Source of the DNA: a bacterium
GTDB taxonomy: Bacteria; Patescibacteriota; CPR2; UBA1875; JAJYID01
NCBI GenBank assembly: GCA_021796415.1
Contig: JAJYJC010000002.1
Span: 7,983-71,982, forward strand
Direction of reading: 5' to 3'
DNA: 64,000 bases
Shown here in pieces: positions 5,457 through 39,176 of the stretch. How positions within the stretch are numbered: position 1 is the stretch's first letter; the number at the start of each line of letters is the position of its first letter. The notes below the pieces were generated by a model that was given only the letters and a program-made list of their open reading frames with translations, was not told the DNA's origin and ran no database searches. Made by a program: the position numbers and the translations under genes.

Positions 5457-5671
5457 AAATAGCAGCAATAGGCACAAGCTCAAGGGTATTGTTTCAGTAT
5501 TCTAGAAAAAGCTTATTTCATTAATTTCCCAAACCAGTTTTAATCTGTGGCTTCATTGAAATCAAGCTCCGAATTTGTTATACTTATGTTCACTATAGAG
5601 TAGCGCAACTTGTACAATGCTGTACCAAAAGGGTATGGCTAAAATATTTTCCGACACAAGGAGGTGACAAC

Positions 5672-7669
5672 ATGAGTCCTGTGGCTACTGAGGAAAAGGA
5701 TTTAATAGCTGCTTTACACGGCGAAAAGCACCAAACGGCAAGAAATGAACTGGTTGAGAAATATCAACCGTTAGTTCGTTATATTGCCAATAAACATGCT
5801 GTAAATGCTGAATACCTTGATGAGCTTATTCAAATCGGATCCATAGGGCTCATAAAGGCAATTGATCGATTCGATCCGTCAAAAGGTGTAAAAATCTCTA
5901 CCTATGCTACCTACAGAATTAAAGGTGAGATCAAGGATTACTTTCGTAATTCTGAACATCGGCTCTTGAGACCTTCCAGACAACTACATGAACTAGCTGT
6001 CAAGCTAGAAAATGCAAGGCAGACTCTCACGAGCACTCACCACAAACCTACGATCACTGAACTGGCTGAGTTTGTCGGTGTCTCTACGAAAAAGGCAGAA
6101 ACTGCTCTTAGCTTGCAAGTAAGTGCGCTTTCTCTTGATGATATAGGTCAAGATGAAAGTAGTGGTCAGACACTAACGGATATTCTCGGCAAAGAAGATG
6201 GAGCATTCTCGCAGCTAGAGTACTCCATGACACTTGACTTTCTGAACTGCTCTGCGCTGAGCCAACGGGAGTTAAGGGTCTTGCATCTGAGGTTCTACGA
6301 AGACCAGTCCCCGACAGAAATAGCAAAGTTGTTAGGCTGCTCTCAGTCTAACATCACCCTGATTATTAAGAAGGCCTTCATCAAACTTCTTGGCAGCACA
6401 AATAGGTCACTTAACTCTGTTTTGCCAGCTTTTAGCTTGGCGAGCTCCGATTTGAGTTTGACTGAAAGTGAAAAAGCTCTAGCACAAGAGGCAGTAAACG
6501 CCTTGGATTATCTAGGCAACGAATCCAAGACTGATGTATTAGTGCAAGAGCTTCATGCCAGAAGAATATCACTGGAAGCCCTGTTATTTGCCCTGAGAGC
6601 TAAATATGTCAAGTTCATAAGCAATGGGGGTAATGGGACTTGGCGAGTTTTACAACCAACACTAACGCCCTCGAGCTTTCATAAGATGTTTGCGGATGAT
6701 CTGGCTTTTATGGACAGGTTACTGCTGACTCTCTTAAAGCATGGTAACGGAGGGATGGAAAGGAGAATTCTCAGAGAAACCCTTAGAAACCAGCCTGGAT
6801 CTCTACGGCTACCCGAGTATGTTGTATTTGCACAATTGCTCGGAGATACTGCTAGGCGTGGTTTTGTCGAAGTGCAGGGAAGTGCAAACTCTGATCTTGT
6901 AATTCCGCTAATCACTTTAAGTGATATCTTCGAGAAGTACAGGAAAAGAGCACTCAATCAGGAAAGGCAAGCACAGCAAAAACGGTTACTAAAACCAAGC
7001 ATCAATGATCCGCGGTTTGAACAGTTACTTGCTCAGCCACTTTCCAGTATAGCAAGGTTCATGACGGTGTTACTGCAGTTCGGCTCGAATGGAACAACTC
7101 GTCGGAACCTTCGCAAGATTCTCTCTCAGAAAAGCAACGGATCGAGCTTCGATATGAGAGATTTCACACGAACAGTGTATAAGGCTCAAGATAAGGATAA
7201 CTGTTTCGAGAAATCTCTGATTGAAGTTATACCGGCAAAGAATCAAGCAGAGGAGGTATTTCGGCCCCTAATCAGATTGGATGACCTTATTGAGAAGCTG
7301 CCTAAAACTAAGGCAAACCACAACCAGCACAAAGCAACCTGCGATAATAACCCTCTTTTCGATGAGCTGGCTCAAATGCCACTCAGCCGGCCTGAAAAGG
7401 TGTTGGTGGTCTTATGGCAATTCGGACCTGAGGGGACTGATCGCAAGACCTTGAGGGAGACAATAAAAAACGAGGTCTCTAATCTACAAGTTAGCAGCCA
7501 CCATTTCTCCTATGCTCTTTATATGGCTGTCCACAATAACAATCGGTGGGGACAACTTGTTGAGATAAGAGACGCCTTAACGCCAGATGAACAAGTCATC
7601 TATCCCCTCGTAACCCTCGAGAATTTGTGTGTAAAATATCAACTCCCAAAAGGAGGTGTCGGCGAATAA
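5672..7669 (+). CDS. sigma-70 family sigma factor (SigB/F-like regions 2, 3 and 4) with a ~410-aa C-terminal extension
   Basis: Region 2 (YLDELIQIGSIGLIKAIDRFDPSKG...TYATYRIKGEI). Region 4 HTH (LSQRELRVLHLRFYEDQSPTEIAKLLGCSQSNIT). SD aaggaggtg upstream. The C-terminal part has about four copies of a ~55-aa repeat (LLQFGSNGTTRRNLRKIL / VLWQFGPEGTDRKTLRETI / LLKHGNGGMERRILRETL). Confidence 0.75.
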   Translation: MSPVATEEKDLIAALHGEKHQTARNELVEKYQPLVRYIANKHAVNAEYLDELIQIGSIGLIKAIDRFDPSKGVKISTYATYRIKGEIKDYFRNSEHRLLRPSRQLHELAVKLENARQTLTSTHHKPTITELAEFVGVSTKKAETALSLQVSALSLDDIGQDESSGQTLTDILGKEDGAFSQLEYSMTLDFLNCSALSQRELRVLHLRFYEDQSPTEIAKLLGCSQSNITLIIKKAFIKLLGSTNRSLNSVLPAFSLASSDLSLTESEKALAQEAVNALDYLGNESKTDVLVQELHARRISLEALLFALRAKYVKFISNGGNGTWRVLQPTLTPSSFHKMFADDLAFMDRLLLTLLKHGNGGMERRILRETLRNQPGSLRLPEYVVFAQLLGDTARRGFVEVQGSANSDLVIPLITLSDIFEKYRKRALNQERQAQQKRLLKPSINDPRFEQLLAQPLSSIARFMTVLLQFGSNGTTRRNLRKILSQKSNGSSFDMRDFTRTVYKAQDKDNCFEKSLIEVIPAKNQAEEVFRPLIRLDDLIEKLPKTKANHNQHKATCDNNPLFDELAQMPLSRPEKVLVVLWQFGPEGTDRKTLRETIKNEVSNLQVSSHHFSYALYMAVHNNNRWGQLVEIRDALTPDEQVIYPLVTLENLCVKYQLPKGGVGE

Positions 7670-7734
7670 ACGGCCAGTAGTATTTCTAGCTGGCCGTTTT
7701 ACTTGCGCTTGAAGAAAACATGGTACTAAAGATA

Positions 7735-8421
7735 CTAGCTCTCCAAGCTTTCCCAAGGGGGAATTTTACATTCATCATCCTTCGATTCTGATCGTACATC
7801 TTTGATATTTGCCACTCTTTTTGGAAATGCTATGCCCGAGGACTCTTTGTATTTATTTCGATATTCAAAAGCTTCCTGCCCCACATTAATCTGAATTTTT
7901 TGAAGATCAGGATTGAAGATAACAACTTCAGCAATGGTGTCCGGACTTGATTGGAACTCCCTTAATGACCATACGGGGAAATAAATATCTTGCTCTCTCA
8001 AGTATTTGTTAATAGCTTGATAATCAACCCCATCCTCTGTAAGTAAGTGCACTAAGAGGATATAAGTGGCAGGGAAATTTTGTTGTAGTTTTGTTCTTAT
8101 CAACTGGTCTAATAATAATTCTGGCGAAGATCTGTAAGTAGTTAATTCTACTTGAGTTATATCCATAGTTCCCGAATTAGGCTGCATGAGTAGAATATCA
8201 GGTGGTTCATCAAGTGGTAAACGAATATATGTAGGTAAATTACGAAAATTACTCAATACAAATGCTATCACTGCAGCTATTCTTGCTTCTCGAGCTTTTT
8301 GATATCTGGGATTTTTTTCTAGCTTATCTTGACCTATCGAAACAGCAAGTTCATCCAAATGCATAAAAACATTTGTAGGTGAATGCCATCTTTTATTAAA
8401 CTGCGAATTTTTCATATACAA
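7735..8421 (-). CDS. hypothetical protein (228 aa), AT-rich islet
   Basis: ORF only. Confidence 0.4.
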   Translation of the reverse strand: MYMKNSQFNKRWHSPTNVFMHLDELAVSIGQDKLEKNPRYQKAREARIAAVIAFVLSNFRNLPTYIRLPLDEPPDILLMQPNSGTMDITQVELTTYRSSPELLLDQLIRTKLQQNFPATYILLVHLLTEDGVDYQAINKYLREQDIYFPVWSLREFQSSPDTIAEVVIFNPDLQKIQINVGQEAFEYRNKYKESSGIAFPKRVANIKDVRSESKDDECKIPPWESLES

Positions 8422-8423
8422 AA

Positions 8424-9365
8424 TTATGTTACGTTTTTATCAATTATATCTACAAGAGAGTTAAAACCCTGCATGCTATCACGAAAATAATCCATCAGTT
8501 TATCTGCCATTTGATCTCCATGACTGTTATTGTGATTCTTCTCATCTGTGGCTCTCACTAAAGATATATTCATAAGCTGTAGTCTAATATTTTCACGATT
8601 GACGGGTAACTGTTTCTCAAATTCTTTAGCGTATTTCTCTTGCCAGTCAGGATGTGACCAATTTAATGCCCATGGATAAGTCAAAAGGGCTTCTAAGGGT
8701 TGTTGAATACCGTCCCAATCAATCAATACTAATCTCCCTGTGCTCAGCCTTATAACATTCCTGGGATTAAAATCACAATTACTCATTATCACTTTTTGCC
8801 GTCCCTCACATTCTCGCCATAAGTTATCTGCCTCTTTTCTAATATTCGTTTCCTCTGATGATTTAATTAAGTTCATCTCCAAAGCTCCAGTAAATCTTTC
8901 CCAAAATCTGACTTCTTCGGCTTTTGCTTGATAAAGAAAAACATCATCTTTTTGTAAAAGATCTTCTACATTAACTTTTATCAGGTCTTTAACAATTTTA
9001 ACCATATCTTCCGCAAGCAGCATATCAGATGTATTAAAGTCGAATCTATTACCTCCATAATATGGCAAAAGTATATAGCTACCATTTGCTTCATTAGTGG
9101 AGTAAACGTGGTCTGCTTTTGGCAAGTTTAAAACAGTAAACTCCTCTTTAACTTGAGGTAAAATATCTCTATAACACCTAGGTTCAAAGGAACCAAAAGG
9201 AACATATTTTAAAAGATGGGTAATTTCTGAGTCATTTGCACAATTAAATTTAAATATCCGGTTACTTACATTGTCAGTAATTTCTTCAACAAATTCCAAA
9301 CCAAAATCTTTTTCAATTTGATTTGCAATTTGGACGAAATCTTTTGGTTTTTTGATGGTTTCCAT
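8424..9365 (-). CDS. kinase-fold phosphotransferase-like protein
   Basis: CDFNPRNVIRL and LIDWDGI resemble APH/CotS catalytic and DFG-like motifs. Confidence 0.45.
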   Translation of the reverse strand: METIKKPKDFVQIANQIEKDFGLEFVEEITDNVSNRIFKFNCANDSEITHLLKYVPFGSFEPRCYRDILPQVKEEFTVLNLPKADHVYSTNEANGSYILLPYYGGNRFDFNTSDMLLAEDMVKIVKDLIKVNVEDLLQKDDVFLYQAKAEEVRFWERFTGALEMNLIKSSEETNIRKEADNLWRECEGRQKVIMSNCDFNPRNVIRLSTGRLVLIDWDGIQQPLEALLTYPWALNWSHPDWQEKYAKEFEKQLPVNRENIRLQLMNISLVRATDEKNHNNSHGDQMADKLMDYFRDSMQGFNSLVDIIDKNVT

Positions 9366-9450
9366 GCTCTTGATTATATTGTTATGTATACAAACTGTAA
9401 AATCTTACAAAAACTAGCCTTTTAAAAGCTCTTATTATGCCTTTATCTGC

Positions 9451-9479
9451 TTGACATGTGTATATTAGTGAGGTATTAT
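9451..9479 (+). promoter_or_regulatory. sigma-70-like promoter (TTGACA, 17-nt spacer, TATTAT)
   Basis: Near-consensus -35 and -10 hexamers with optimal spacing, read directly from the sequence. Confidence 0.5.
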
Positions 9480-9486
9480 TAGTTCG

Positions 9487-9613
9487 AGGTATGCAATAAT
9501 AGCTTTCGAAGCGCTGAGATGTTCCCTCGGAGCATCCGAGACTAAAGTCTCAGAACACCACTTCGGGAGACGCTGCCTCCCAAAAAACTTAAGCCGTTGG
9601 CTTGGGTTTTTTA
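9487..9613 (+). ncRNA. candidate small RNA (~125 nt) between a consensus promoter and an intrinsic terminator
   Basis: No ORF. Internal hairpins ctgaga...tctcag and gggag...ctccc. Terminal hairpin aagccgttggctt followed by a T6 run. Confidence 0.3.
9588..9613. terminator. bidirectional intrinsic terminator
   Basis: Hairpin ttaagcc-gtt-ggcttgg flanked by A6 upstream and T6 downstream. Confidence 0.5.
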
Positions 9614-9614
9614 T

Positions 9615-10262
9615 TTAGCTAAATAGTTCCTTACCATCGCCAATTATATTATTTTTAAGGATCTTGAAATATATTTTCCCATGCTTCTTGTCCTCTAGAT
9701 AATGTGCTATACAACCCGTTATCCAGTCAGCTATTTGAATATTTGCACTGGTAGTAGAATCAACCATCTCTATTTGAATAAGAGTATTTTTCGACATCTT
9801 AGGTAAGAGCTGAGCCTGTAACAATGAATTGAACTGACTTCTTTTGATGCCTTTTAAATGTCTCTGGTCGCAAAATGCTCTAAACTCCTTGTCCGCTATT
9901 GGCAAATACATTTCCAGTGTATCTCCTATAATCTGCGTATAGAGTTCCCCGGCCTTGATTTTGCCTTTATGAATAAACTCTTCGGGAATATTTTTCCTTT
10001 TAAGATAAGAATACCTAATTCTTACATCCAAGTCAGCGATGTATTGGACGGTTTTGATCCTCAGTTCATCTTGAATATTTACGTCAGAAAACTTAACCTC
10101 AGGTTGATTTCTCATCTTGCGAGGAAACTTTTCTTTGTGCCATGACCTAAACCTTTTCTCCGTGCGCCTTGGGTCACCAACGGTAAACGAACCAACTACA
10201 AAATATTCACCATCTTTTGATTTGTTAAATTGTCCGCTCTCATCAATATAAATATATGGCAC
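9615..10262 (-). CDS. DUF3800-like protein
   Basis: N-terminus MPYIYIDESGQF matches the DUF3800 hallmark (IYIDESG). Confidence 0.5.
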   Translation of the reverse strand: MPYIYIDESGQFNKSKDGEYFVVGSFTVGDPRRTEKRFRSWHKEKFPRKMRNQPEVKFSDVNIQDELRIKTVQYIADLDVRIRYSYLKRKNIPEEFIHKGKIKAGELYTQIIGDTLEMYLPIADKEFRAFCDQRHLKGIKRSQFNSLLQAQLLPKMSKNTLIQIEMVDSTTSANIQIADWITGCIAHYLEDKKHGKIYFKILKNNIIGDGKELFS

Positions 10263-10387
10263 TTATCCTCCTTGTGTAGATTTATTGACTGAATAAATCT
10301 CTCTTAGAGCTTATATTTTACTCCTTTTGAGCTTCAAAATAAAGGTAAAAAGTGCTTAGCAACTTGGTTTTTGCATTCCAATTTAAA

Positions 10388-10480
10388 TCAAAATCAGCTA
10401 TAATAAGTACTCAAATTAGCCGGATGAGTTTGGGGGTAACCCTAAGCTTTCAAAGCTTGCAACCTTGAAAAGGAGAAGAG
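10388..10480 (+). promoter_or_regulatory. conserved promoter/leader module (copy 1): caaaatcagcTATAATaagtactcaaattagc ... tttgaaaaggaga
   Basis: The 33-nt block is nearly identical to the one at 14381-14414. TATAAT is at 10399-10404. Confidence 0.5.
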
Positions 10481-10481
10481 A

Positions 10482-10730
10482 ATGAAGGCTCGTGTGCGCT
10501 TTAATGCAAATAACTTAAAAAGGCCGCTAAGTCCTTTCGATTGGAAATGCCTTTTGTGGGGCACAACACTGTCGTTGACAAGCGTAGTTGTTATGTTCTT
10601 TGCAGCATTCTTTCAATTGCAGACAACTCATCCGACAATGGTCCAATGGATTACTCCGATGCCGGTTTTGATCGGTATAGGGTTAATGATTTTTGTCTCA
10701 TCAAAGACGCATTGGAAAGGGAGTGAGTGA
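10482..10730 (+). CDS. small membrane protein paralog 1 (82 aa)
   Basis: SD aaaaggagaag. Two hydrophobic helices. Confidence 0.55.
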   Translation: MKARVRFNANNLKRPLSPFDWKCLLWGTTLSLTSVVVMFFAAFFQLQTTHPTMVQWITPMPVLIGIGLMIFVSSKTHWKGSE

Positions 10731-10984
10731 AGATGGAAAGCAGTATTGCAGTTGTTGCAGGCCGCTTGCAAAAGAAGAGGCGAAAGATTGACCCGCTTTG
10801 GTATTTGGCGGTGGCTGTCTTCTGCAACTTCATCATCATTGGGTGTCTCGCTTATGGAATACCCATGGCTGATACAGCGATCGGGAAAGCTATCATCACC
10901 GCAAGCGTAACGCCTTGCCTTATCGCAGCGGTCTGTGTATGGCTTGGTGTAGGAGGATTAATCTCAGAAAAACGACGGAGGTGA
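10727..10984 (+). CDS. small membrane protein paralog 2 (85 aa)
   Basis: Repeated start context gggagtgagtgaagatgg. Two TM helices. Confidence 0.55.
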   Translation: MKMESSIAVVAGRLQKKRRKIDPLWYLAVAVFCNFIIIGCLAYGIPMADTAIGKAIITASVTPCLIAAVCVWLGVGGLISEKRRR

Positions 10985-10991
10985 ATGAAAG

Positions 10992-11261
10992 ATGGTGTCA
11001 AAGGAAGAGCTCAAAAAGATCAAAAAGAGCTGGCGCAAAGCCTCTTATGGCGGTTTTCTTGTTGCTATGGTCGCAGGGGCAATTCAATATTTCTCTGTGT
11101 TGCATCTCGTCCTGGCGGATGAGAGAACTCTCGGGGGTTTCATAATACTGATTCTCCTCGTGGTATCCGTTGCCTTTATACCTTTCAGTCTGCTTTATGG
11201 CATTGTATGTGCCCTTGTCTCAATATATCCCGAGAAGGCTTTCGGGGAAAACGGGAGGTAA
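10992..11261 (+). CDS. small membrane protein paralog 3 (89 aa)
   Basis: Start context ggaggtgaatgaaagatgg. Two TM helices. Confidence 0.55.
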   Translation: MVSKEELKKIKKSWRKASYGGFLVAMVAGAIQYFSVLHLVLADERTLGGFIILILLVVSVAFIPFSLLYGIVCALVSIYPEKAFGENGR

Positions 11262-11268
11262 ATGAAAG

Positions 11269-11514
11269 ATGGTAACAAGGGGTGAATCTTTTAAGGCTCG
11301 TTATGGCATGAAGTTCAGCACTGTATATTGGTTAATAGTCGTTTTTTGTCAGACGCTCGTTCTGGTAATCGCGGTAGCCTTGATGTCATTTGATGTCAGT
11401 CGGGTGAACTTGACTGCATTGACGGGTATCATTCTGGTGCTGGTTGTGCTATCGGTTTGCTTTGCTATCGGCGCGCTTTATGCCGCCAAGGATGAGCGAA
11501 AACCAATCGAATAA
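11269..11514 (+). CDS. small membrane protein paralog 4 (81 aa)
   Basis: Start context gggaggtaaatgaaagatgg. Two TM helices. Confidence 0.55.
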   Translation: MVTRGESFKARYGMKFSTVYWLIVVFCQTLVLVIAVALMSFDVSRVNLTALTGIILVLVVLSVCFAIGALYAAKDERKPIE

Positions 11515-11525
11515 GAAAGGGGTGA

Positions 11526-11714
11526 ATGACGATGGGACCAGTCAAGGTTCTTACAGGAGACCGTTTGCTTTTTCTTGCGGCTGCCTTTGCGGCATTTGCC
11601 GTATTTGCAGTTGTTGCCGATAAGGTCTACAGTTCTCTTATGTGGGGGATCTTTTCAGTGATAGGTCTGATCGGTGAGGCTTTTTGCGTACTTGTGCTTT
11701 ACAGGCGAAGATAG
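11526..11714 (+). CDS. small membrane protein paralog 5 (62 aa)
   Basis: Start context aaggggtgaatgacgatgg. Two TM helices. Confidence 0.5.
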   Translation: MTMGPVKVLTGDRLLFLAAAFAAFAVFAVVADKVYSSLMWGIFSVIGLIGEAFCVLVLYRRR

Positions 11715-11891
11715 CCTCAAACGTTCAGTATGGGAGAGGATGTGGATTTTATATCCGCATGCAGTACCTCTCCTTTTTTCTTTGATATCATAAGTCTGCT
11801 ATCTCGCAATTTCCATTGTACACTTAAAAAACTGGAAGTTGGTAATGTGAGCACGACTTCTGTATAATATATTTATAAATTAGGTTCTTTT

Positions 11892-12557
11892 ATGACAAAT
11901 GAAGTGACAAAAAATGAAACAAAAACAGACCCAAAGGGCCAATTGAGGGAATTGACCAATGAGGAAATCACTGCGATTGGAGAAGAGAGAGAAAGTTTCT
12001 ACAAATTATATAGTGACACTGTTCGAGAATATGGCGATTCAGCAATAAATCTATTGTTAAGATTAATTGACTTTGGTTATAAAATTGCTCAAATCTCCGG
12101 AGTAATTGCTGGATTTGGTTTCGTAGCAATCAGCCAAGTAAAAAATGTGTGGCTATTCCTTTCAGGGGAATCTCTGTTAATTTTTGTTATTATTTACGGC
12201 ATATTCAAAGTAAAAAACATATATGAGAATAATTTAGATAATGTCAATAAATCAATGACTAAAGCAACTGCTGCATTTGAAAATAAAAGTAAAATACACA
12301 TCGAGATGTATCAGGAGCTGGCAGACAACTACACCTCAGACGGTAAAACCTCTTTGCATGGCGCTTACTTTGGAACAAAAATAATTGAAGCCAATGATAA
12401 GCTTTTAAAAACCTTTGATACGAAAGAAATTGACCCCAAAAAAGATAACTTCCTCACGAATATGTTAATCATCCTACCAGTAGGCGCTACCCTGCTTATT
12501 CTTTCGTTCTTTATTAGCTGGAGCATGGTTATTAATTTAGTACATCTTTTCTTATAA
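11892..12557 (+). CDS. hypothetical membrane protein (221 aa)
   Basis: ORF with internal and C-terminal hydrophobic segments. Confidence 0.4.
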   Translation: MTNEVTKNETKTDPKGQLRELTNEEITAIGEERESFYKLYSDTVREYGDSAINLLLRLIDFGYKIAQISGVIAGFGFVAISQVKNVWLFLSGESLLIFVIIYGIFKVKNIYENNLDNVNKSMTKATAAFENKSKIHIEMYQELADNYTSDGKTSLHGAYFGTKIIEANDKLLKTFDTKEIDPKKDNFLTNMLIILPVGATLLILSFFISWSMVINLVHLFL

Positions 12558-12642
12558 AACTTTAAAAGATAATGAGGCAAACTATATCGCACCGCCCCAC
12601 TATCAATATCTAAAGACGCCAAAATTTGTTATAATTTCCCTT

Positions 12643-13095
12643 ATGAATACTTTAATAGTCCTTACCGCAAAATATCTATACCTAATCATTGTCTTGATTG
12701 CCATAATTGTTTTCTTGAAAGCAGATAAGCAGGATAAGGTTAGACTCATTAAACTGGCAGTTATAGCGGGTCCCTTAGCTTTAATCATGGTTTTTATATC
12801 CAGTCATCTTTTCTACGACACTAGACCTTTTGTAGTTCAAAACATCCAACCCTTGATTCCTCATTCCCCAGACAATGGTTTTCCATCAGATCATACTTTG
12901 ATTTCAATGCTGGTTGCTCTTAGTATCTATCGAGTTAAGAAGAATGCTGGTGTCTTGCTTGCTATTCTTGCACTAATAGTTGGCACTTCAAGAGTACTGG
13001 CACATATTCATTATCCGGTTGATATCTTAGGGAGTATTGTCATTGCAATGATTGCTGTGGGACTAGCTTCACTTCTTTTTAAAAAACGTAATTAA
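12643..13095 (+). CDS. PAP2-family phosphatase (undecaprenyl-/lipid-phosphate phosphatase-like)
   Basis: PAP2 motifs PSDHT (PSGH-like) and SRVLAHIHYPVD (SRxxxxxHxxxD). Confidence 0.65.
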   Translation: MNTLIVLTAKYLYLIIVLIAIIVFLKADKQDKVRLIKLAVIAGPLALIMVFISSHLFYDTRPFVVQNIQPLIPHSPDNGFPSDHTLISMLVALSIYRVKKNAGVLLAILALIVGTSRVLAHIHYPVDILGSIVIAMIAVGLASLLFKKRN

Positions 13096-13327
13096 AGATG
13101 TGTTCAAGTTCTGTCTCTGCCACCAAGGTTGATATCTTAGCTTAATATAGGTATAAAATTTATGTCGTAAAATAGACCCATTTTTATATTTGAACTTTTG
13201 TGCTTAAAGGTCCCTTTTCGAGGCTTTATTTGTTTTTTAAACTGATTGACTATAATTAGTTTAGTGTTAAATTGTTTATACGGCACTGACTGTTACCCAA
13301 GCAATAATTTGAAGGAGGTGCAGAAAC

Positions 13328-13708
13328 TTGAAACTCCAGGGTTCGGAAAATATTACCTATTTGGAAATTGTCAAGCTACTTGTGGGTCAGCATAAAGAAG
13401 TGATTTGTCAGATCACAGCCCCGCATATTATCCAAAGGATAATGGACCATCTTGAATATGAGGCTGAGGCTGCTCCTCTCCTCTTTGACCCCATCTCGCA
13501 TCGATATTTTCTCCGCTGGTTTGATGCCTACGACGAAAGCTCGGGTGCGGAAGTCCTCAGGGGTTTTATTAACTTTGGCGAGGGCTATCATTACATCCTC
13601 GATGAGGCCTTTTTCAATGTTCTTGAAGAAGCGCTGGAAGGTATTGAACCGGAAGAAATTAATCGACCTGTGGGACATTTTGTTTTCGACGATGGGTCAG
13701 AAATCTGA
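13328..13708 (+). CDS. hypothetical acidic protein (126 aa), TTG start after aaggaggtg
   Basis: ORF with RBS. Confidence 0.4.
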   Translation: MKLQGSENITYLEIVKLLVGQHKEVICQITAPHIIQRIMDHLEYEAEAAPLLFDPISHRYFLRWFDAYDESSGAEVLRGFINFGEGYHYILDEAFFNVLEEALEGIEPEEINRPVGHFVFDDGSEI

Positions 13709-13718
13709 AAGGACAGAA

Positions 13719-13919
13719 ATGAAATTATCCGAGGAACAGATTAAGCGGATTACTGCCAAGCCGCAAGGCACCTTCAGAAAGTCGAACATGGCAAAGGATG
13801 TCATCGACAGAATCCCTGCCGGGGCGATGGAGGAGATTCTCCTGAAGGAAGGTCGAGCCTGGGGCGAACTACGGAATAAACTCGTTTCTAATCCCTGCGG
13901 AGGGGAGGTCTACTCATGA
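13719..13919 (+). CDS. small hypothetical protein (~66 aa)
   Basis: ATG preceded by aaaggacagaa. Downstream part of tracked ORF 13452-13919. Confidence 0.35.
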   Translation: MKLSEEQIKRITAKPQGTFRKSNMAKDVIDRIPAGAMEEILLKEGRAWGELRNKLVSNPCGGEVYS

Positions 13920-14077
13920 CAAAACGGGAGAAAAGGACGATCGCTCGCCGGTGGAATCAAATGTATGCGAAGTTCCGGGATGGGCTCACTAAACAAGAAG
14001 AGGATGAATACAGGAGAGCTCTCTACGCGGAACGCAACCGCTCAACCCCGCCCATGACCCTCGGAGGACCTGGCTGA
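13916..14077 (+). CDS. small hypothetical protein (~53 aa) ending GGPG
   Basis: ATGA overlap with the upstream gene. RBS ggaggt. Confidence 0.3.
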   Translation: MTKREKRTIARRWNQMYAKFRDGLTKQEEDEYRRALYAERNRSTPPMTLGGPG

Positions 14078-14120
14078 ATTTGTTGGCCTCACTGAGTATC
14101 AGTGAAAGGAGGACTCGCAA

Positions 14121-14279
14121 TGAGCATGCAAACAGAAGGCAATGGAAAGCCGGTCTCTGTTCCTTCCGAACTGTTTGATCCGTCACCGGAACTCATCAGA
14201 CAACTCGATGAGTTGGCGGCCTGGAGGTTAAGGTCTGCAATTATGATGGCTGATCAAGTCTTCGGTCCCCCCGGATGAC
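14121..14279 (+). CDS. small hypothetical protein (~52 aa) ending GPPG
   Basis: RBS gaaaggagg. Below the ORF-track length cutoff. Confidence 0.3.
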
Positions 14280-14312
14280 CCTGTCAAAATCACTGATGTT
14301 GTCAGTGAATCA

Positions 14313-14347
14313 AAAGCCCCTGTACTACAGGGGCTTTTCTCTGTCTA
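14313..14347 (+). terminator. intrinsic terminator
   Basis: Hairpin aaagcccctgta-ctac-aggggcttt followed by a T-rich tract. Confidence 0.5.
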
Positions 14348-14380
14348 ACCGAAATCTTCTTTACGCCTCGTAAAAACGGG

Positions 14381-14483
14381 CAAAATCAGCTATAATAAGG
14401 TACTCAAATTAGCTAGATAAGGTTGGAGGATAGGACTCTAACCTTTTTGAAAAGCTCGAACTTTGAAAAGGAGATGTATTCTC
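14381..14483 (+). promoter_or_regulatory. conserved promoter/leader module (copy 2)
   Basis: caaaatcagcTATAATaaggtactcaaattagc plus tttgaaaaggaga, matching copy 1 at 10388. Confidence 0.5.
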
Positions 14484-14759
14484 ATGATCACTATTACTGA
14501 TAAGGATGGTGAGGTTTGCGCGAAGTTGGACGACCTGGGAGCGGTCTTGGTCTGGATGCAAAACAAAACCATAGCCCTCATTAACGAAGGGGCGAAAAGT
14601 TTTGAATTTGAGGCGCGAGATGCAAATAATCAGCCTCAGATTTCCGTTACTGGTTATCCCACTTTGGGAGAAAATGATACCCTCATGTTTCCTTCTGTGA
14701 GGTGGGATTTTCATTGGCTTGAAAACGCTCAAAGCGAATTCAGCAATGGAGGTGAGTAA
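14484..14759 (+). CDS. hypothetical protein (~91 aa)
   Basis: ATG preceded by aaaaggaga. Confidence 0.4.
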   Translation: MITITDKDGEVCAKLDDLGAVLVWMQNKTIALINEGAKSFEFEARDANNQPQISVTGYPTLGENDTLMFPSVRWDFHWLENAQSEFSNGGE

Positions 14760-14761
14760 AG

Positions 14762-15034
14762 ATGAATGCTGGACAGAAGACCGGAAAAAGGTATGCAAGG
14801 TTCAACACCTGGGTCCTTCCCGAGGAGTTAACTGTTTTACGCGATATCTCAGGGTTGGAACTTGTTGGTAGTCATCCAGATAACGACAACCCCGCTCGAA
14901 CCATTGCCTACTGCAGTATAGAATCTGGGAAGTTTGATGCTGCTCTCTCAAGGCTCAACCAACACTTTTGGGGAGTAAAGGAGGTATCAGAGAAGGAAGC
15001 GGGAAGTTACCGTAACAGTTTACTGAAACTCTAA
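14762..15034 (+). CDS. hypothetical protein (90 aa)
   Basis: ORF tightly coupled to the upstream gene. Two tandem terminator hairpins follow at 15064-15135. Confidence 0.4.
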   Translation: MNAGQKTGKRYARFNTWVLPEELTVLRDISGLELVGSHPDNDNPARTIAYCSIESGKFDAALSRLNQHFWGVKEVSEKEAGSYRNSLLKL

Positions 15035-15396
15035 TGTCATATATTCCGCTTGTAATTGGAGAAAGGCGGGGACAAGAAAAATGTCTTGTCCCCGCCACAG
15101 GGGACTTTTTGAAAAAAAGAGTCCTTTTTTCTTTGGGTAAAAAGTGCTCAGCAAAGATCGTTTCTGCGATACATCTCCGATTATTGTGTATACGATAGAT
15201 ATTCCTTGCGATTTTGTTTAGTTCGGCTTGATGAAGAGGCTGCCAAGAAATAATCTTGAGATTCGGTCCCATCTGCTCAAAGCTGGCAGGTAGTCCCGCA
15301 TTACCGGTTGCAGTAAACGTTAAAATATAGTATAATCTTTTTAGTGTATAGAGGGTCCACAAGAGTGTGGACTTATTTATTGAACATTGAAAAGAG

Positions 15397-16923
15397 GTGA
15401 GACTAATGGGTAGAAGGGGTAGGCAAAGGATATGGACTGAGGAAGTTGTCATCAACACGCTTAAATCTCTGAAAAAGAATGGCGAACCGGTTAACACGCA
15501 GTACCTGATTAACAACCACCGATCATTGCGTTCGGCTATGGTGAAGAGATTCGGTTCCTGGGAAAAAGCTGTTGTTGCAGCCGGGCTAGATCCCAAAAAG
15601 GAACGAGCTAAAAACCAACCTACTAAGAGCAATAATGCCCGGAAAGAAGCAGTGGTCAAGACTACGCCTCAGTCTAAACGGAAATCTTCCAGGAAATGGC
15701 GTGGTACTTACAAGCAATGGAGTAAGGATAAGATCATTGCCCAGTTGCATGAAATCAAGCTCAACGGAGAAGCCATCAGTTATAATTCATTGAGACAAAA
15801 TGGCTACAGTGGCCTTGCGGCTGCAGCTTGCCGTTACTTCGGTTCATGGGAAAAAGCAATCATAGCGTCTGGTTTTGATCCCGACCAAGAAAGCTTGGTT
15901 AAGAGATCTGGAAAGCCTTCTGAAAGTTGGGATAAAGACAAGGTCATTTCTAGATTCAAAGAGATCAAAGCCAAAGGCGGCAGTATCAACTATAAGGCCA
16001 TACAAGAAAATCATTATGGTCTTTGGAGTGCGGCTTGTTACTACTTTGGTTCCTGGGAAAAGGCGGTCACTGTTGCTGGCTTTAACCCCGATGAGGAGAA
16101 GCTGTTTCAGAAATTTGCGCTGAAGAGGAAGATAGGAAGACATCCCTTGGCCCCTTCAGAGGAATATGAGCGATCCTTAGTAAAGCAAGGCAAGCTCAAT
16201 GTTCTCTTTCCAGCCATGAGACAGCTTAGAGAACAATTAGGACGAGCTGCGACAGACGTCGAAATTGCACATTTCCTCAAAAAGTCGGTGGAGGAGATTG
16301 CTAATTGGCAATCAAGCAGAGAGAGGCTAATCCTCTCTTACCTGCCACTAGCAGAGAGCTATGCAAGGCATTTTTATGAGCATCAAGTCAAGGTAAGGCA
16401 TCTGACTTCTGACAATAAGTACAACAGAGAAGAATTCAGGGCTTTTGGCAGTCTATGGCTAGTTGAAGTTATGGAGGAATTCGATTGGGGCGACGAATTC
16501 GGTGGTTTTTCTGGCTATTTCAAGGTAGCATTTGAAAGGAGGATATATTACCGATATCTGATCAAGGAGATCGAAAATCCTATCATATCATTTGACTATG
16601 AAATAGAGTCTGGGCGAGATGGTAGCAGAATGATCCTCGCGGATATAATTGCTGACCCTCGGTCTCTACCAGAACCAGAATACGACCCAAAACAGTTATC
16701 CTTCATAAAAAGCGCCCTTAATCAACTGCCGGGAAGTCTCAAGCATGCACTTATGTGGGATCTTGGCATGGAATTTCATGACAAGACGCCCGCGGAGTTT
16801 GCAACTTTTCTGGGGGTTGCCATTGGAGACATAGACGAGCTCATCAAAACTGCTATTAGGAAGTTCTCAAGTATAGTTTTTCAACCCGGACTTCCTGACG
16901 GCGATCAGGCTTTAGCCTCATGA
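15397..16923 (+). CDS. sigma-70-like protein with three N-terminal ~55-aa repeats
   Basis: C-terminal HTH LKHALMWDLGMEFHDKTPAEFATFLGVAIGDIDELIKTAIRKF (region 4-like). Central segment LILSYLPLAESYARHF...FSGYFKVAFERRIYYRYL (region 2-like). The N-terminal repeats share W..EKVI...KEIK..G..I.Y..L..N...L..A...YFGSWEKA...AGF[DN]P. Confidence 0.5.
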   Translation: MRLMGRRGRQRIWTEEVVINTLKSLKKNGEPVNTQYLINNHRSLRSAMVKRFGSWEKAVVAAGLDPKKERAKNQPTKSNNARKEAVVKTTPQSKRKSSRKWRGTYKQWSKDKIIAQLHEIKLNGEAISYNSLRQNGYSGLAAAACRYFGSWEKAIIASGFDPDQESLVKRSGKPSESWDKDKVISRFKEIKAKGGSINYKAIQENHYGLWSAACYYFGSWEKAVTVAGFNPDEEKLFQKFALKRKIGRHPLAPSEEYERSLVKQGKLNVLFPAMRQLREQLGRAATDVEIAHFLKKSVEEIANWQSSRERLILSYLPLAESYARHFYEHQVKVRHLTSDNKYNREEFRAFGSLWLVEVMEEFDWGDEFGGFSGYFKVAFERRIYYRYLIKEIENPIISFDYEIESGRDGSRMILADIIADPRSLPEPEYDPKQLSFIKSALNQLPGSLKHALMWDLGMEFHDKTPAEFATFLGVAIGDIDELIKTAIRKFSSIVFQPGLPDGDQALAS

Positions 16924-17050: not shown

Positions 17051-17224
17051 CTTAAAAAGGTTGGGGGCCATTTAAATTCCGTAAACCATTGGGGTTCAGA
17101 ACGGTACCATATGAAACAAGACAAAAAAACAAGACAAAAAAAGTTCTTGACTTGATAAACCTCTTATGTTAAAGTCTTGCCATTAAAATCAAATAGGAGG
17201 GGCAGGAGGGAAGAAAGGATCCCT

Positions 17225-24508: not shown

Positions 24509-24934
24509 ATGATAAAGGAAAAATTTTCAACCTTTTTAGAATATTCTTTGTCTCAAAAAGAAGTTTCTCTAATCGTGGCCAAACATGAAAATGAGCTTTC
24601 TCATTTTGAGAGGTGGCTTGAAGACAAGGGGTTTAGAAGAGCTGCTCATGCTTTTGACTTGCTTGACAACCTTGAAGATCATAAGAAACTTTACGTGATT
24701 TTAAAAACAGAGAATGGCAAAGATTCCTATGATTTTGCGGCTCAGTTTCCAACGGGTCAGATTGAGCTTTTTGATAAAAAAACCATGAAAAAGATGCTAA
24801 AAAATATTGATTATAAAAACCGATCAATAGTCTTTTTAACCACAAAGCATCATCTCTTCGACCTTGAAAAGGAGGATTTTAATTTTCTCTCATCAGTTGG
24901 TATGGCTTTCAGAAATGGAGATGCCCATGTCTAG
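24509..24934 (+). CDS. hypothetical protein (141 aa)
   Basis: ORF between the VWA and ATPase genes. Confidence 0.4.
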   Translation: MIKEKFSTFLEYSLSQKEVSLIVAKHENELSHFERWLEDKGFRRAAHAFDLLDNLEDHKKLYVILKTENGKDSYDFAAQFPTGQIELFDKKTMKKMLKNIDYKNRSIVFLTTKHHLFDLEKEDFNFLSSVGMAFRNGDAHV

Positions 24935-27002
24935 TCCGGAATTTAGTTTACTTACCGATCCTGAGCAGGAAAAGCCTGTAGAGGATAAGCATCAGGAAGA
25001 AAAAAGCGAGACTCTCGCTCCGATTGCGGAGGATGAAACCTCGGTTTCATATCTAGGGGTAAGATTAGAAAAAGGGCATGTGCCAAGCCCCTTTATACCA
25101 GAGAGAGATAAATATACTGACTATATAAATGATCGATTTACCCTGGAGCTACAGCAGAAGATTGCCATCGGCTTTCAGTCGGGCGACCCTACTCTTATCG
25201 AAGGCGGGACTAGTATCGGTAAGACTACAGCAGCCAGAAAGATGTGTGCGGAACTTGGCTGGGAAGTTCATTATGCTAACTTGAATAAGGCCACGGATGT
25301 TGAAGATTTAATGGGCCGATATATTCCAAATCCTCATCGAACCAAACCTGATGATCCCGAGTTCGTTTTTGCCGATGGAAGAGTTACGGCCGGCCTAAGA
25401 CAGGAAGAAGGAAAAATAAAAGTTATCATCCTTGATGAATATAATGCGGCAGCGCCAAACATTGTAATCCGCCTGCATGAGGTACTAGATGCCCTTGAGC
25501 GTGATGGAGATGTTGTGCTATCGGAAGATGCCTCAGAAACCGTTCCTGTATCGAAAGATAAGACGAAATTAATTGCCCTCACTAATCCGCCCGGAAAAGG
25601 TTACTTTGGTCGTGAACCGCTAGATCCGGCTCAGTTAAGAAGATGGGTCTACCAGAAAGAAGCGAGCAATTTACCCGAAAATACTTTCTCTTTTTCAACC
25701 AAAAGTCTCTTTGGCTTGGTCTCGGAAAATGGCGATGTTATTCCCGAAGAAGTTTACCTAGAATCTCATGAAGACACTCTTTCTTCTCAGCAAATTGCTG
25801 AAATTCCCGGTATTAGCGAAGTGGAGGCAAAGTATGAAGAGTTTCATAGGGCAGCGAAAGAGCTTTTGAAAAATAGAACCATTGCTGCCGATCAACCGCA
25901 ACAGTTTACTTTTGATGATAGAATGGAGCCAAGACGGGTACGAGACTTTGTAATGAGGTTTTACAGCGGAGATATCAATGAAACTTTTCAGCAAGCTCTA
26001 AGATATTATTATTCGAATAAACTAGAGTCAGACGAAGACAGGCAGAAGATTGAAGAGCTAATCTCTCATGTAGGATACACTCCTCAGCCCGACTCAAGAA
26101 GGTTGGGTCTTGAGGATGAATCACGCCCAGAGGGAGTTGGCCTAAGAGATCAAGTCGAGATCGGCATAGAAGATATTTTGCAGGACCCGGCCATTCCGGA
26201 TTCAGTCAAAGAGGTTCTAAGAGTTGAGGGGGTAAAGTTTTCTGAGGCAAAGGAAATAATGAACCAAGATTTTATCGGTCCAGACGAGATTAAAAAAGCT
26301 TTTGGTTTAGAGGTGGATAGAGTACCAGATATTCCCTTTTCAAGAAGCGAACTGGAAAGAGCTAAGGAACTCGATCAAATGCTTATATATAGAACGGGTA
26401 CTGCTGCCCGAGGCGAGCCGATGACTATGGAAAAGATAAATGGCCTTCTTTCCGGCAAGACTAAAGATGGCGGAAAGATATTTTTTGATACTGATTGGTA
26501 TAAAGATGAGGCATTTTTTAAGTCTGAAGCAATCAAGGAAGGATGGTCTCTTGTGTCTAAGGAAGTTATATCTGAGTCGACCAGCAAGAACTATCTGGAG
26601 CAAACCGAGACAATGGTAGATTATCTTAGGAGTAAAGTTTTTGCAGGAGGCGATGTGCCAGAGGAATATCAGGAAGCAATTGGCCAATTTGAAAGCCAAA
26701 AAGATGAAATTTCAAAATTGATAGAAAGTAACTGGAAGAAAGCGGCTGAAAAACTAGAGGGTCTTTCCATTACTCACATGACCAGACAAAGACCGGTTGA
26801 AGCTATCTATGACTTAGTTGCTGTTTATGAGAATACTGATGACCATCTACTTTCTAACAGATATACTTGGACTTCCGCGCGTGACTCTGGCGGCAAGCTG
26901 GTCCGTGTGGGCTACTTCGATGCCAGGGGCGTGCGTGTCCACGGGGGCAGTCCCGACGATCGGTATGACAATCTGGGCGTTTCTTTCTCCCGCAGTCAGT
27001 GA
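24930..27002 (+). CDS. AAA_5/MoxR-like ATPase fused to a C-terminal DGR variable (target) domain
   Basis: Walker A GGTSIGKTTAARKM. Walker B VIILDEYN. Sensor 1 LIALTNPPG. Arginine motif LDPAQLRRW. The last 113 bp before the stop is VR1. The start is uncertain (24864-24930). Confidence 0.7.
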   Translation, partial: SSPEFSLLTDPEQEKPVEDKHQEEKSETLAPIAEDETSVSYLGVRLEKGHVPSPFIPERDKYTDYINDRFTLELQQKIAIGFQSGDPTLIEGGTSIGKTTAARKMCAELGWEVHYANLNKATDVEDLMGRYIPNPHRTKPDDPEFVFADGRVTAGLRQEEGKIKVIILDEYNAAAPNIVIRLHEVLDALERDGDVVLSEDASETVPVSKDKTKLIALTNPPGKGYFGREPLDPAQLRRWVYQKEASNLPENTFSFSTKSLFGLVSENGDVIPEEVYLESHEDTLSSQQIAEIPGISEVEAKYEEFHRAAKELLKNRTIAADQPQQFTFDDRMEPRRVRDFVMRFYSGDINETFQQALRYYYSNKLESDEDRQKIEELISHVGYTPQPDSRRLGLEDESRPEGVGLRDQVEIGIEDILQDPAIPDSVKEVLRVEGVKFSEAKEIMNQDFIGPDEIKKAFGLEVDRVPDIPFSRSELERAKELDQMLIYRTGTAARGEPMTMEKINGLLSGKTKDGGKIFFDTDWYKDEAFFKSEAIKEGWSLVSKEVISESTSKNYLEQTETMVDYLRSKVFAGGDVPEEYQEAIGQFESQKDEISKLIESNWKKAAEKLEGLSITHMTRQRPVEAIYDLVAVYENTDDHLLSNRYTWTSARDSGGKLVRVGYFDARGVRVHGGSPDDRYDNLGVSFSRSQ
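26878..26990 (+). repeat. DGR variable repeat VR1 (113 bp)
   Basis: Matches the TR at 29518-29630 with 13 substitutions, all at TR adenine positions. Confidence 0.85.
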
Positions 27003-27085
27003 TACTTTGAAAATTGATTTTTGAAACTTTGATACGCCGAAGGCGTCGGACACAAAATTTTAACAGAAGGTAATAAGGATAAAAA

Positions 27086-28066
27086 ATGAGCGAAATCGGA
27101 TCACCACAACCTGAAATACCGGAGGAAGCGGTAGAAAAAGAAGCTGAGGGTATTAGAATTGCCACAGAAATATCTGAGCTTAGGGCAAGTGCCCGTAATG
27201 AAGCTGATTATGAGAATATTTTGCAAAAAACTCGAGAGCTAAAGGAGCTTTTTGGGATAGTTGTAGAAGGTAAGCTTTCTGGCGAAGTTGCGGAACAGAT
27301 GAGTATGGCCAAAGAAATCATGGAGGAGGATTTTTTCGGTCCGGATGAGATTAAAAAAGCCCTTGGCATTGAAGTGACTGAAATGCCGGACATCCCATTC
27401 AAAAAAGAGGAACTAGAAAGAGCAAAGGAGCTAGAACAGATATTGATTTTGCGGACAGACAAAGCTTCCGATGGCAGTCCTCTAACAATGGAAAAGGTTC
27501 GCGACATGATGGGTAACGAAGACAAAGATGGCGGAAAAATCTTTTGGGAGAGCGCTGACTGGTATAAAGATGAAGCTTTTTATACCAAAGAGACTGCTAA
27601 AGTTGGTTGGGCGTTGGTCTCTAAAGAGGAAATTCCTGATGCAACCAATAAAAATTATTTAGAACAAACAGAAAGTCTTGTTACTTACCTCAAAAACCAA
27701 GTTTTTGCCGGAAAACCGATGCCAAAAGAATATCAGGATGCCGTAGGCGAATTTGAATCACAGAAGTCAACAATAGAGAGTTTGGTCGAAGATGACTGGA
27801 AAGCTGCAGCAGAGAAGTTATCCAAGCTTTCCATTACCAAGCTCACCCGCCAATCACCGGTTGAGGCCATTTATGATATAGTAGTGCATTATCAGAACAC
27901 GGATGAGAGATTGCTAGAAGAAATGTATACTTGGACTTCCGCGCGTGACTCTGGCGGCAGGCTGGTCCATGTGGGCGGCTTCGGTGCCGAGGGCGTGAAT
28001 GTCAACGGGAGCAGTCCCGACTCTCGGTATGACTTTCTGGGCGTTTCTTTCTCCCGCAGTCAGTGA
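27086..28066 (+). CDS. DGR target protein paralog (326 aa)
   Basis: About 65% identical to the C-terminal 270 aa of the 24930-27002 product. VR2 sits at its 3' end. Confidence 0.7.
   Translation: MSEIGSPQPEIPEEAVEKEAEGIRIATEISELRASARNEADYENILQKTRELKELFGIVVEGKLSGEVAEQMSMAKEIMEEDFFGPDEIKKALGIEVTEMPDIPFKKEELERAKELEQILILRTDKASDGSPLTMEKVRDMMGNEDKDGGKIFWESADWYKDEAFYTKETAKVGWALVSKEEIPDATNKNYLEQTESLVTYLKNQVFAGKPMPKEYQDAVGEFESQKSTIESLVEDDWKAAAEKLSKLSITKLTRQSPVEAIYDIVVHYQNTDERLLEEMYTWTSARDSGGRLVHVGGFGAEGVNVNGSSPDSRYDFLGVSFSRSQ
27942..28054 (+). repeat. DGR variable repeat VR2 (113 bp)
   Basis: Matches the TR with 14 substitutions, all at TR adenine positions. Confidence 0.85.
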
Positions 28067-28123
28067 TACTTTGAAAATTGATATTTGAAACTTTGATACG
28101 CCGAAGGCGTCGGACACAAATTT

Positions 28124-36417: not shown

Positions 36418-36462
<45 letters not shown>

Positions 36463-38288: not shown

Positions 38289-38344
<56 letters not shown>

Positions 38345-39143: not shown

Positions 39144-39176
<33 letters not shown>

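Follow-up and report, generated by a model that had tools for sequence, protein, structure and literature searches.

Putative mobile promoters have been described as sequences at least 80% identical across 50 nucleotides (nt) or more that stand upstream of unrelated genes within one genome (Matus-Garcia, Nijveen and van Passel 2012; PMC3575422). The survey covered -150 to -50 relative to the start codon, mostly without a -10 element; the sequences were not tied to any insertion sequence or RNA family already known, and rewiring of expression was proposed as the effect (PMC3575422). Stem-loops at the 5' end are established stabilisers of mRNA, as in the E. coli ompA, B. subtilis aprE and ermC leaders (PMC7509114). 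The type IV secretion system (T4SS) loci of Patescibacteria and the variable small-gene arrays adjacent to them have also been described, in work that does not cover promoters (PMC12102498, PMC12857230). Here we analyze a cassette of ~90 base pairs (bp), comprising a predicted promoter and its leader, that is repeated in front of two unrelated operons in a conjugative element of an ultrasmall bacterium of the Patescibacteria (Patescibacteriota; CPR2; UBA1875; JAJYID01). The cassette lies in a stretch of 64,000 nt (the window; GenBank assembly GCA_021796415.1, contig JAJYJC010000002.1, positions 7,983 to 71,982 of the forward strand), to which coordinates refer unless another contig is named.

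Modules of two further kinds bear on this arrangement. The operator modules of conjugative elements, such as those of the IncP KorA/KorB regulon and the ImmR-controlled Pxis promoter of ICEBs1, are palindromic sites for identified repressors. The lambdoid PR'-qut late promoter module of Q antitermination carries a conserved stretch of DNA directly before the -10 element. To our knowledge, there is almost no experimental work on promoters, leaders, gene regulation or the expression of conjugative cargo in Patescibacteria.

Results

A repeated cassette precedes two unrelated operons

The initial annotation had noted a sequence block at positions 10388 and 14381 and proposed that a promoter/leader module had been duplicated before two different operons of small genes. 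The block is real and the pair is unique in the window, although the first copy starts at 10389, one base later than noted. Exact matches to the 19-mer CAAAATCAGCTATAATAAG are at 10389-10407 and 14381-14399, and these remain its sole two sites in the window even at 3 mismatches (0.04 expected). Following it, GTACTCAAATTAGC is exact at 10407-10420 in copy A and at 14400-14413 in copy B. The block of copy B is that of copy A with one additional G, CAAAATCAGCTATAATAAG(G)TACTCAAATTAGC, and is found only at 10389-10420 and 14381-14413. The units and the genes that they precede are as follows.

10389..10476, + strand: cassette copy A, whole unit from CAAAATC to GGAGA, before five small membrane-protein genes (blastn, covariance model)
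10389..10420, + strand: core of copy A, with AAAAT at 10390-10394, TATAAT at 10399-10404, then AAG, and the invariant ACTCAAATTAGC at 10409-10420
14381..14474, + strand: cassette copy B, whole unit, before a pair of genes for 91 and 90 amino acids (aa) (blastn, covariance model)
14381..14413, + strand: core of copy B, with AAAAT at 14382-14386, TATAAT at 14391-14396 and ACTCAAATTAGC at 14402-14413
L006, positions 90-181: copy C, orthologous to copy B, on an 800-bp ENA contig
10482..11714, + strand: operon of copy A, five tandem genes for two-helix membrane proteins of 82, 83, 89, 81 and 60 aa, with a hairpin terminator at ~11735-11786
14484..15034, + strand: operon of copy B, the 91-aa and 90-aa genes, with terminators at 15088-15127

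When 10389-10476 was aligned with 14381-14474 by blastn, 77 of 95 columns were identical (81%, E = 5e-18). The similarity, first traced from the -10 element into the transcribed leader, is longer than originally noted and reaches GGAGA. The homologous unit thus has sharp edges, from CAAAATC to the Shine-Dalgarno sequence GGAGA, and measures 88 nt in copy A and 94 nt in copy B. No similarity outside this stretch was detected by blastn of the two intergenic regions and first genes, and the 60 nt 5' of copies A and B are 25% identical, i.e. at random level. The proteins encoded directly downstream are also unrelated (82 aa versus 91 aa; BLASTP E = 1.5), so that the proposal of one module before two different operons is borne out.

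Copy C precedes a homologue (63% identical) of the 91-aa protein at the matching position on another contig, L006. Within the core, 32/33 positions agree between A and B, 29/32 between A and C, and 29/33 between B and C. Beyond the 33-bp core, identity between A and B falls to 69%. Taken together, the first ~50 columns are the closer part of the A-B alignment (block 32/33, linker 3/5, 5' arm of the leader hairpin 7/10; ~87% over 48 columns), and TTGAAAAGGAG, the ribosome-binding-site segment, is again exact in both copies (at 10465 and 14463). Counted from the start codon, copy A of the cassette spans -93 to -6 and copy B -103 to -10. The equal distance of ~60-70 nt to the Shine-Dalgarno sequence, as first reported, holds roughly, with 67 nt (A) and 73 nt (B) from the end of TATAAT to GGAG; the Shine-Dalgarno sequence of copy A had been misread and is cCTTGAAAAGGAGA, not TTTGAAAAGGAGA.

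A covariance model (R1) was made from the cassette copies and used to scan the window and other loci. In the window, it retrieved only copies A (99.4 bits) and B (102.5 bits); a third candidate, at 24802-24876, was dismissed, as it scored 20 bits and lies within a gene. The model found no further cassette in the 10 kb that precede the window, which gives two copies in ~74 kb.

The proteins of the copy A operon match no Pfam, PHROG or NCBIfam family. The first of them has no homologue among 5.8 billion proteins, the search retrieving only the protein itself. The other proteins of the array are 11-24% identical to the first, and the gene junctions are near-identical, e.g. GGAGGTGAATGAAAGATGG, in which stop codon, ribosome-binding site and start codon overlap. 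The array recalls the variable small-gene (pilin) arrays beside Patescibacteria T4SS loci; its proteins have no pilin match in Pfam. The products of the copy B operon are small soluble proteins, likewise without a Pfam, PHROGs or NCBIfam match. AlphaFold2 models of the 91-aa and 90-aa proteins are confident (predicted local distance difference test scores of 86 and 85), and PDB searches with them gave no informative structural neighbour, all matches being weak and generic (best E = 0.21 and 0.0085).

The cassette carries a -10 element and an AAAAT box

Copies A, B and C all match the -10 consensus TATAAT at 6/6 positions. No -35 element is present at a spacing of 16-18 bp: the hexamers at 17 bp match TTGACA at 3/6 positions and differ between copies. 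A consensus promoter scan called neither A nor B, in agreement with the absence of a conserved -35 that had been reported for the block. Conservation is seen instead at CAAAATC, at about -22 to -16, and at the AAG directly 3' of the -10 element. The AAAAT box contained in CAAAATC lies at about -21 to -17, four bases before TATAAT.

The combination AAAAT-N4-TATAAT occurs at five sites in the window, all on the + strand, versus 0.17 expected, and each of the spacings 0-11 except 4 gives zero or one match. All five sites are in the conjugative-element part of the window.

10390, + strand: cassette copy A
12621, + strand: promoter of a PAP2 gene
14382, + strand: cassette copy B
15322, + strand: promoter of the gene for sigma-HNH, a fusion of homing-endonuclease-associated repeats with sigma-like regions
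28966, + strand: antisense within a reverse-transcriptase gene

No enrichment of the motif was seen in related Patescibacteria DNA (828 kb), and the three sites outside the cassettes have nothing else in common with the block. Because the motif is found at five window sites and is not enriched in related DNA, the AAAAT box looks like a local promoter element, and not like an operator of the two copies alone. At 12621, the end of the motif is 7 nt away from the downstream PAP2 start codon (12643), and the PAP2 mRNA may be leaderless.

Copy A lies in a divergent intergenic region and copy B follows, by ~40 nt, a hairpin that closes the upstream operon.

14312..14340, + strand: terminator-like hairpin AAAAGCCCCTG...CAGGGGCTTTT, seen in the sequence

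This hairpin was omitted by a simple terminator scan, perhaps because the scan lets the stem run on into the T-run. Since it leaves only ~40 nt before copy B, the TATAAT of the cassette must be the promoter of the 91-aa gene. Neither sequence inspection nor the promoter scan revealed another promoter candidate in either intergenic region. Canonical promoters do occur elsewhere in the element: TTGACA-17-TATTAT at 9451-9479, TTGACT-17-TAAAGT before the pilin gene (17147-17175) and TTGAAA-17-TATACT before the gene for a 665-aa sigma-like protein (5556-5584).

The initial annotation had also suggested that the block is a shared operator or 5'-UTR element. A search for dyads yielded only a 5-bp AGCTA/TAGCT in copy B and, with 1 mismatch, CAGCTA/TAGCCG in copy A; copy C has none. 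The dyad conserved in all copies that is expected of an operator for a dimeric repressor is thus missing, and the proposal of a specific operator is not supported. Copy B contains a direct repeat with a period of 22-23 nt (AAATCAGCTATAATAAGGTA at 14383-14402 and AAATTAGCTAGATAAGGTT at 14406-14424), which is much weaker in A and C and brings a degenerate -10-like sequence to the base of the leader hairpin. A single-strand (Frpo-like) promoter was considered and dropped, as the promoter is not within a long hairpin.

The leaders share a predicted RNA structure

The transcript probably begins near ACTCAAATTAGC, which would give a leader of ~75-80 nt. A structure common to both leaders, raised as a possibility at the outset, was indeed found on folding: the same hairpin (P3) is present in both, with compensatory changes. 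Its position and length are the same in A, B and C, with z-scores between -3.4 and -4.1. RNAalifold and single-sequence folds predict that two basal helices, P1 and P2, enclose P3 in a three-helix rod and that the ribosome-binding site is unpaired.

10411..10468, + strand: basal helices of leader A, P1 UCAA 10411-10414/UUGA 10465-10468 and P2 AGC 10418-10420/GCU 10455-10457
10426..10449, + strand: hairpin P3 of copy A, 10-bp stem 10426-10435/10440-10449, loop GUAA (-13.5 kcal/mol, z = -3.95)
10472..10484, + strand: GGAG ribosome-binding site (10472-10475) and ATG start (10482) for the first gene of the membrane-protein array; the gene call matches the public annotation
14404..14466, + strand: basal helices of leader B, P1 14404-14407/14463-14466 and P2 14411-14414/14453-14456
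14419..14445, + strand: hairpin P3 of copy B, stem 14419-14428/14436-14445 with a 7-nt loop, then UUUUUG (-13.0 kcal/mol, z = -4.13)
14470..14486, + strand: GGAG ribosome-binding site (14470-14473) and ATG start (14484) for the 91-aa gene; homologues keep this start

Over the three copies, all 30 of the 30 possible P3 pairs (10 per copy) can form; 3 of the 10 pairs are changed on both sides and 3 by G-U wobble, which gives moderate support for a stem kept through compensatory changes. Because G-U pairs are exchanged with G-C or A-U, P3 would act as + strand RNA and not as a DNA palindrome. If the start lies 5-9 nt past TATAAT, helix P1 would begin at ~+1 to +3.

The same layout, consisting of a -10 element, 15-22 nt, a hairpin of 9-10 bp, ~20 nt and a ribosome-binding site, recurs in two leaders that are unrelated to the cassette. 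One precedes homologues of the 91-aa gene on contigs L197-L200 (type II leader, below; ~-10 kcal/mol) and the other the sigma-HNH gene (hairpin 15353-15374, -12.1 kcal/mol). Because unrelated leaders have this layout in common, the role of the hairpin would be a generic one.

Three other functions for the leader were considered and rejected. Small open reading frames (ORFs) overlap both leaders and are not conserved, as a leader peptide would be; a GGA in the loop, as for CsrA-type binding, is present in B and C and missing from A; and sequestration of the ribosome-binding site, including an RNA thermometer, disagrees with the unpaired site of the consensus fold.

The core is conserved above the neutral rate and the cassette is exchanged among relatives

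Comparison of copy B with its orthologue C allowed conservation of the cassette to be set against that of the gene. The genes are 68.5% identical over all positions, 50% at third codon positions and 57% at four-fold degenerate sites. Among the noncoding parts, the core is identical at 29/33 positions and the 60 nt upstream at 25%. The core is therefore conserved above the neutral rate (core versus four-fold sites, P = 1.4e-4). The sites of difference among copies A, B and C (-15, -13 and ~-3) all fall between the AAAAT box, the -10 element with AAG, and the leader start, and every conserved sub-block has a plausible role.

Members of the 90% protein cluster of the L006 homologue could be placed on a further four contigs, L197-L200. 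At the DNA level the genes on these contigs and that of L006 are 87-95% identical, and 18-20 of the 22 bases before the ATG match. Upstream of these 22 bases, L197-L200 carry an unrelated promoter and hairpin leader, here called type II, with TTTACT-17-TATAAT, ~17 nt, a 9-bp hairpin of ~-10 kcal/mol, ~20 nt and a ribosome-binding site. The closest pair is L006 (cassette) and L198 (type II), with genes 95% identical and 20/22 matches before the ATG, and with unrelated sequence further upstream. The type II hairpin shows G-U/G-C changes between L197 and L199. The covariance model did not find the cassette in L197 (18 kb). L006 and L200 come from one sample, ERZ27237563.

Since near-identical genes carry two unrelated promoter/leader sequences, the cassette is exchangeable, with a junction at the ribosome-binding site. 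One gene family thus uses two alternative cassettes, one of which also drives the unrelated membrane-protein array. In L199 (1-144) and L200 (3-137), the type II promoter/leader is preceded, at a distance of ~100 nt, by the 3' end of an rve-type transposase gene, and an insertion sequence may have taken part in the transfer of the type II leader or the gene.

Searches for further copies

The exact pattern TATAATAAGN{1,2}ACTCAAATTAGC was absent from 185,579 species genomes and from a metagenome collection. A relaxed pattern, AAAATCNNNTATAATN{4,6}CTCAAAT, gave 11 viral and at least 120 metagenome matches, which all scored at most 27 bits with the covariance model and were rejected as chance; one of them, L112, lies within a ribosomal-protein operon. 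Searches of plasmid and phage collections by blastn returned nothing meaningful. The cassette was not found in 54 related Patescibacteria T4SS loci (VirB4 66-86% identical), the best score among them, L024, lying inside a PLD-like gene and being rejected. Rfam 15 contained no match to cassette or leader at gathering thresholds, and permissive scans of both leaders gave chance-level scores far below these thresholds.

The cassette is hence known from one lineage only. With two copies in ~74 kb, it does not have the distribution of a dispersed repeat or miniature mobile element. The initial annotation had named, as an outcome that would speak against its proposal, membership of a larger dispersed repeat without positional relationship to genes; the sole copy elsewhere, that of L006, precedes an orthologous gene at the same position.

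The cassettes lie in the variable cargo of a conjugative element

Downstream of the cassettes is a monoderm-type T4SS with VirB2-like pilin, VirB6-like, PrgI, TraC-like, VirB4 and M23 peptidase genes. Just upstream of the window (L193, 10373-20372) are genes for DUF3768, a Replic_Relax relaxase, a VirD4-like coupling protein of 873 aa and a large serine recombinase. Because the T4SS follows and the relaxase, coupling protein and serine recombinase precede, the left part of the window belongs to an integrative conjugative element. In the 54 related loci only the core from pilin to M23 is conserved, and no gene from 5672-16923 is present. L197 is a related element with backbone genes 44-86% identical and with the 91-aa gene placed elsewhere; its cargo differs and includes defence genes (reverse transcriptase, GmrSD/HNH, EcoRI-type methylase, PycTM). 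As relatives conserve the core and differ in cargo, both cassettes lie in the variable cargo region. The stretch with the cassettes is also present on contig DAHWUJ010000001.1 of the metagenome-assembled genome GCA_027334665.1 (NCBI), and the strain is contained in DNA samples SRR33270670 and SRR13170411.

Two sigma-like proteins are encoded near the cassettes.

5672-7669: sigma-like protein of 665 aa, with a complete SigB/F/G-like sigma in the first 240 aa and a 425-aa extension
15397-16923: sigma-HNH, three homing-endonuclease-associated repeats fused to sigma-like regions

Several features of the window lie apart from the cassettes. A DUF3800-V RNA (Rfam RF02964, 71.5 bits) is found at 9485-9580, six bases after the end of the TTGACA-17-TATTAT promoter, and converges on a DUF3800 gene (9615-10262, - strand). 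A pair of 203-nt repeats, 92% identical, is located at 26862-27064 and 27926-28128, at the 3' ends of two ORFs, and is adjoined by the reverse-transcriptase gene (28124-29194, - strand). The repeat pair and the reverse transcriptase together look like a diversity-generating retroelement; the 17 mismatches between the repeats are not adenine-specific in either copy, and both may be variable regions with the template elsewhere. The match to 23S rRNA at 35669-39549 is ~950 nt longer than the model, and the gene thus carries insertions. Related repeats of 40-69 nt flank and interrupt the rRNA region (35275, 35558, 38471, 40589), and next to the 5S gene are partial duplicates resembling 5S (40834-40870 and 41093-41128).

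Discussion

We consider it likely that the cassette is a portable unit of ~90 bp, combining a promoter with an mRNA-stabilising leader, which has been reused before two unrelated cargo operons and co-expresses them. On the DNA, TATAAT, the AAAAT box and the AAG after the -10 element would together form a promoter without a -35. In the RNA, the leader would fold as a rod in which two basal helices tie down the 5' end, followed by the 10-bp hairpin, and the ribosome-binding site TTGAAAAGGAG would stay single-stranded. Both operons would receive an identical transcription signal and 5' stem-loop, the latter protecting the mRNA from 5'-end-dependent decay. Sharing this signal and the protective stem-loop, they would be co-expressed. 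Recombination would swap the cassette between genes, with one junction at the ribosome-binding site.

Several points weigh against this account. We infer promoter activity and transcription start, as well as the stabilising role of the leader, from sequence. The structural comparison comprises only three copies (two paralogous, one orthologous), and 24 of 500 shuffles equalled the covariation of P3, which makes it suggestive and not strong. The pairs of P1 and P2 are all invariant, so that covariation neither supports nor contradicts them. A simple stabiliser would leave unexplained the contrast between a drifting hairpin and the invariance of ACTCAAATTAGC and the bases that pair with it; the constancy of the first 12 nt hints at an additional sequence-specific contact, be it with RNA polymerase, a regulator or an RNA-binding protein. 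The five U's that follow the hairpin in B and C could partly terminate transcription. Finally, neighbouring promoters have canonical -35 boxes, and the -35-less promoter of the cassette may therefore need a helper.

A first alternative is a dedicated regulon signal. An element-encoded factor (the 665-aa sigma-like protein, the HNH-repeat/sigma fusion, or a repressor or activator contacting -22 to +12) would recognise the 33-bp block and switch the two operons together with element functions. Such a factor is compatible with a reused cassette, and we regard it as unlikely, with some real chance of being right. Control by one of the two sigma-like proteins had been suggested in the initial annotation, and the hints at it are weak and indirect. 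It would account for the missing -35 amid canonical neighbours and for the invariance of the block well past the -10 element. It would also fit the enrichment of AAAAT-N4-TATAAT in this window only, the site before the sigma-HNH gene being suggestive of autoregulation, and the direct repeat of copy B (AAATCAGC...AAATTAGC, 22-23 bp apart). However, the -10 element is a perfect housekeeping TATAAT, from which the known SigB/F/G-type promoters differ. The three copies have no dyad in common, the direct repeat is degraded in A and C, the block tolerates a one-base indel, and the remaining AAAAT-N4-TATAAT sites share nothing more with it. Moreover, no DNA-binding domain was detected in the nearby small proteins. 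The sole full-length database homologue of sigma-HNH, L007 (42% identical), has no cassette module in the ~1 kb upstream and 260 bp downstream of it on a short contig.

A more specific form of regulation, which we think quite improbable, is that AAAAT-N4-TATAAT represents a promoter class private to the element and read by its own sigma-like protein, the leader start and hairpin then being a regulated attenuator. The reader may be the homing-endonuclease-repeat/sigma fusion, whose own gene carries the motif. If true, the cargo genes of a Patescibacteria conjugative element would have a transcription programme of their own.

More doubtful still is an attenuator or antitermination leader as such, in which the promoter would continually yield a short RNA that stops at the hairpin unless a factor permits read-through, this factor recognising the invariant 5' sequence or, like the Q proteins of phages, the DNA block. 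The stem in B and C resembles a terminator, being preceded by A's and, with 8-10 bp, followed by UUUUUG (B) or UUUUUA (C). By inspection, CUCAAA can pair with the 5' arm UU(U/G)G(G/A)G in all three copies, and an invariant leader start beside a drifting hairpin would suit a protein site beside a terminator. Against this, copy A has only UUUC and no credible terminator, and the terminator scan, which covered the window, called neither A nor B. The alternative pairing contains an A-G mismatch in B and C and is weak; no Rfam leader or riboswitch matched, and no antiterminator-like protein was identified.

The least probable explanation is a recombination scar, i.e. 33-bp direct repeats left, without regulatory meaning, by insertion of the 4-kb segment 10421-14380, either site-specifically or through homologous recombination in a promoter region that was already there. 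The direct orientation of the copies around a compositionally mixed segment, the step from 32/33 in the first 33 bp to 69% beyond (as a crossover predicts), the differing sequences upstream of the cassette in L006 and copy B and the clear shuffling of cargo between related elements would agree with it, but the homology continues ~60 nt past the core through a compensated hairpin to the ribosome-binding site, unlike an attachment-site core, the core is conserved above neutral in orthologue C as well, no recombinase lies within or beside 10421-14380 (the serine recombinase of the element is >15 kb away, upstream of the window), each copy is the sole promoter candidate for its operon, and a crossover, which may account for the perfect identity, accounts for neither the existence nor the conservation of the cassette.

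The reused promoter and stabilising leader remain our preferred explanation, and the cassette is in this sense a clear and fairly ordinary case of promoter reuse. What sets it apart is that it is well delimited, includes a structured leader, has been caught in the act of exchange and belongs to a lineage whose regulation is unexplored. Close relatives with the same gene behind a different cassette provide a natural swap control, a clean promoter exchange at the ribosome-binding site. The cassette could also serve as a genetic part for the few cultivable Patescibacteria.

Comparison with known systems

The PR'-qut module resembles the cassette in having a conserved element before the -10, a conserved initial transcribed region, a promoter-proximal hairpin and, in 2/3 copies, a U-run. 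The resemblance is in layout only: no Q-like protein was found, and copy A has no terminator. With the IncP and ICEBs1 modules the cassette shares the principle that several operons of one element have a promoter-proximal sequence in common, which there serves to switch them together. In contrast to these modules, it has neither a conserved dyad nor an identified regulator, is present in two copies, and its conservation continues into a structured leader.

As in the stabiliser stem-loops, the hairpin of the cassette is near the predicted 5' end and is followed by an accessible, strong ribosome-binding site, and in the main stem structure is conserved over sequence. Its first 12 nt are invariant in sequence, a feature not required of the classical stabilisers.

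The closest counterparts are the putative mobile promoters. With 81% identity over 95 columns and adjacent genes that are non-paralogous, the cassette pair falls within their definition, although it overlaps only partly with the surveyed range of -150 to -50. The cassette differs from them in including the -10 element, the whole 5' untranslated region and the ribosome-binding site, and both of its edges are defined. In addition, its replacement by a second cassette has been caught among near-identical genes, and it lies within the cargo of a Patescibacteria conjugative element.

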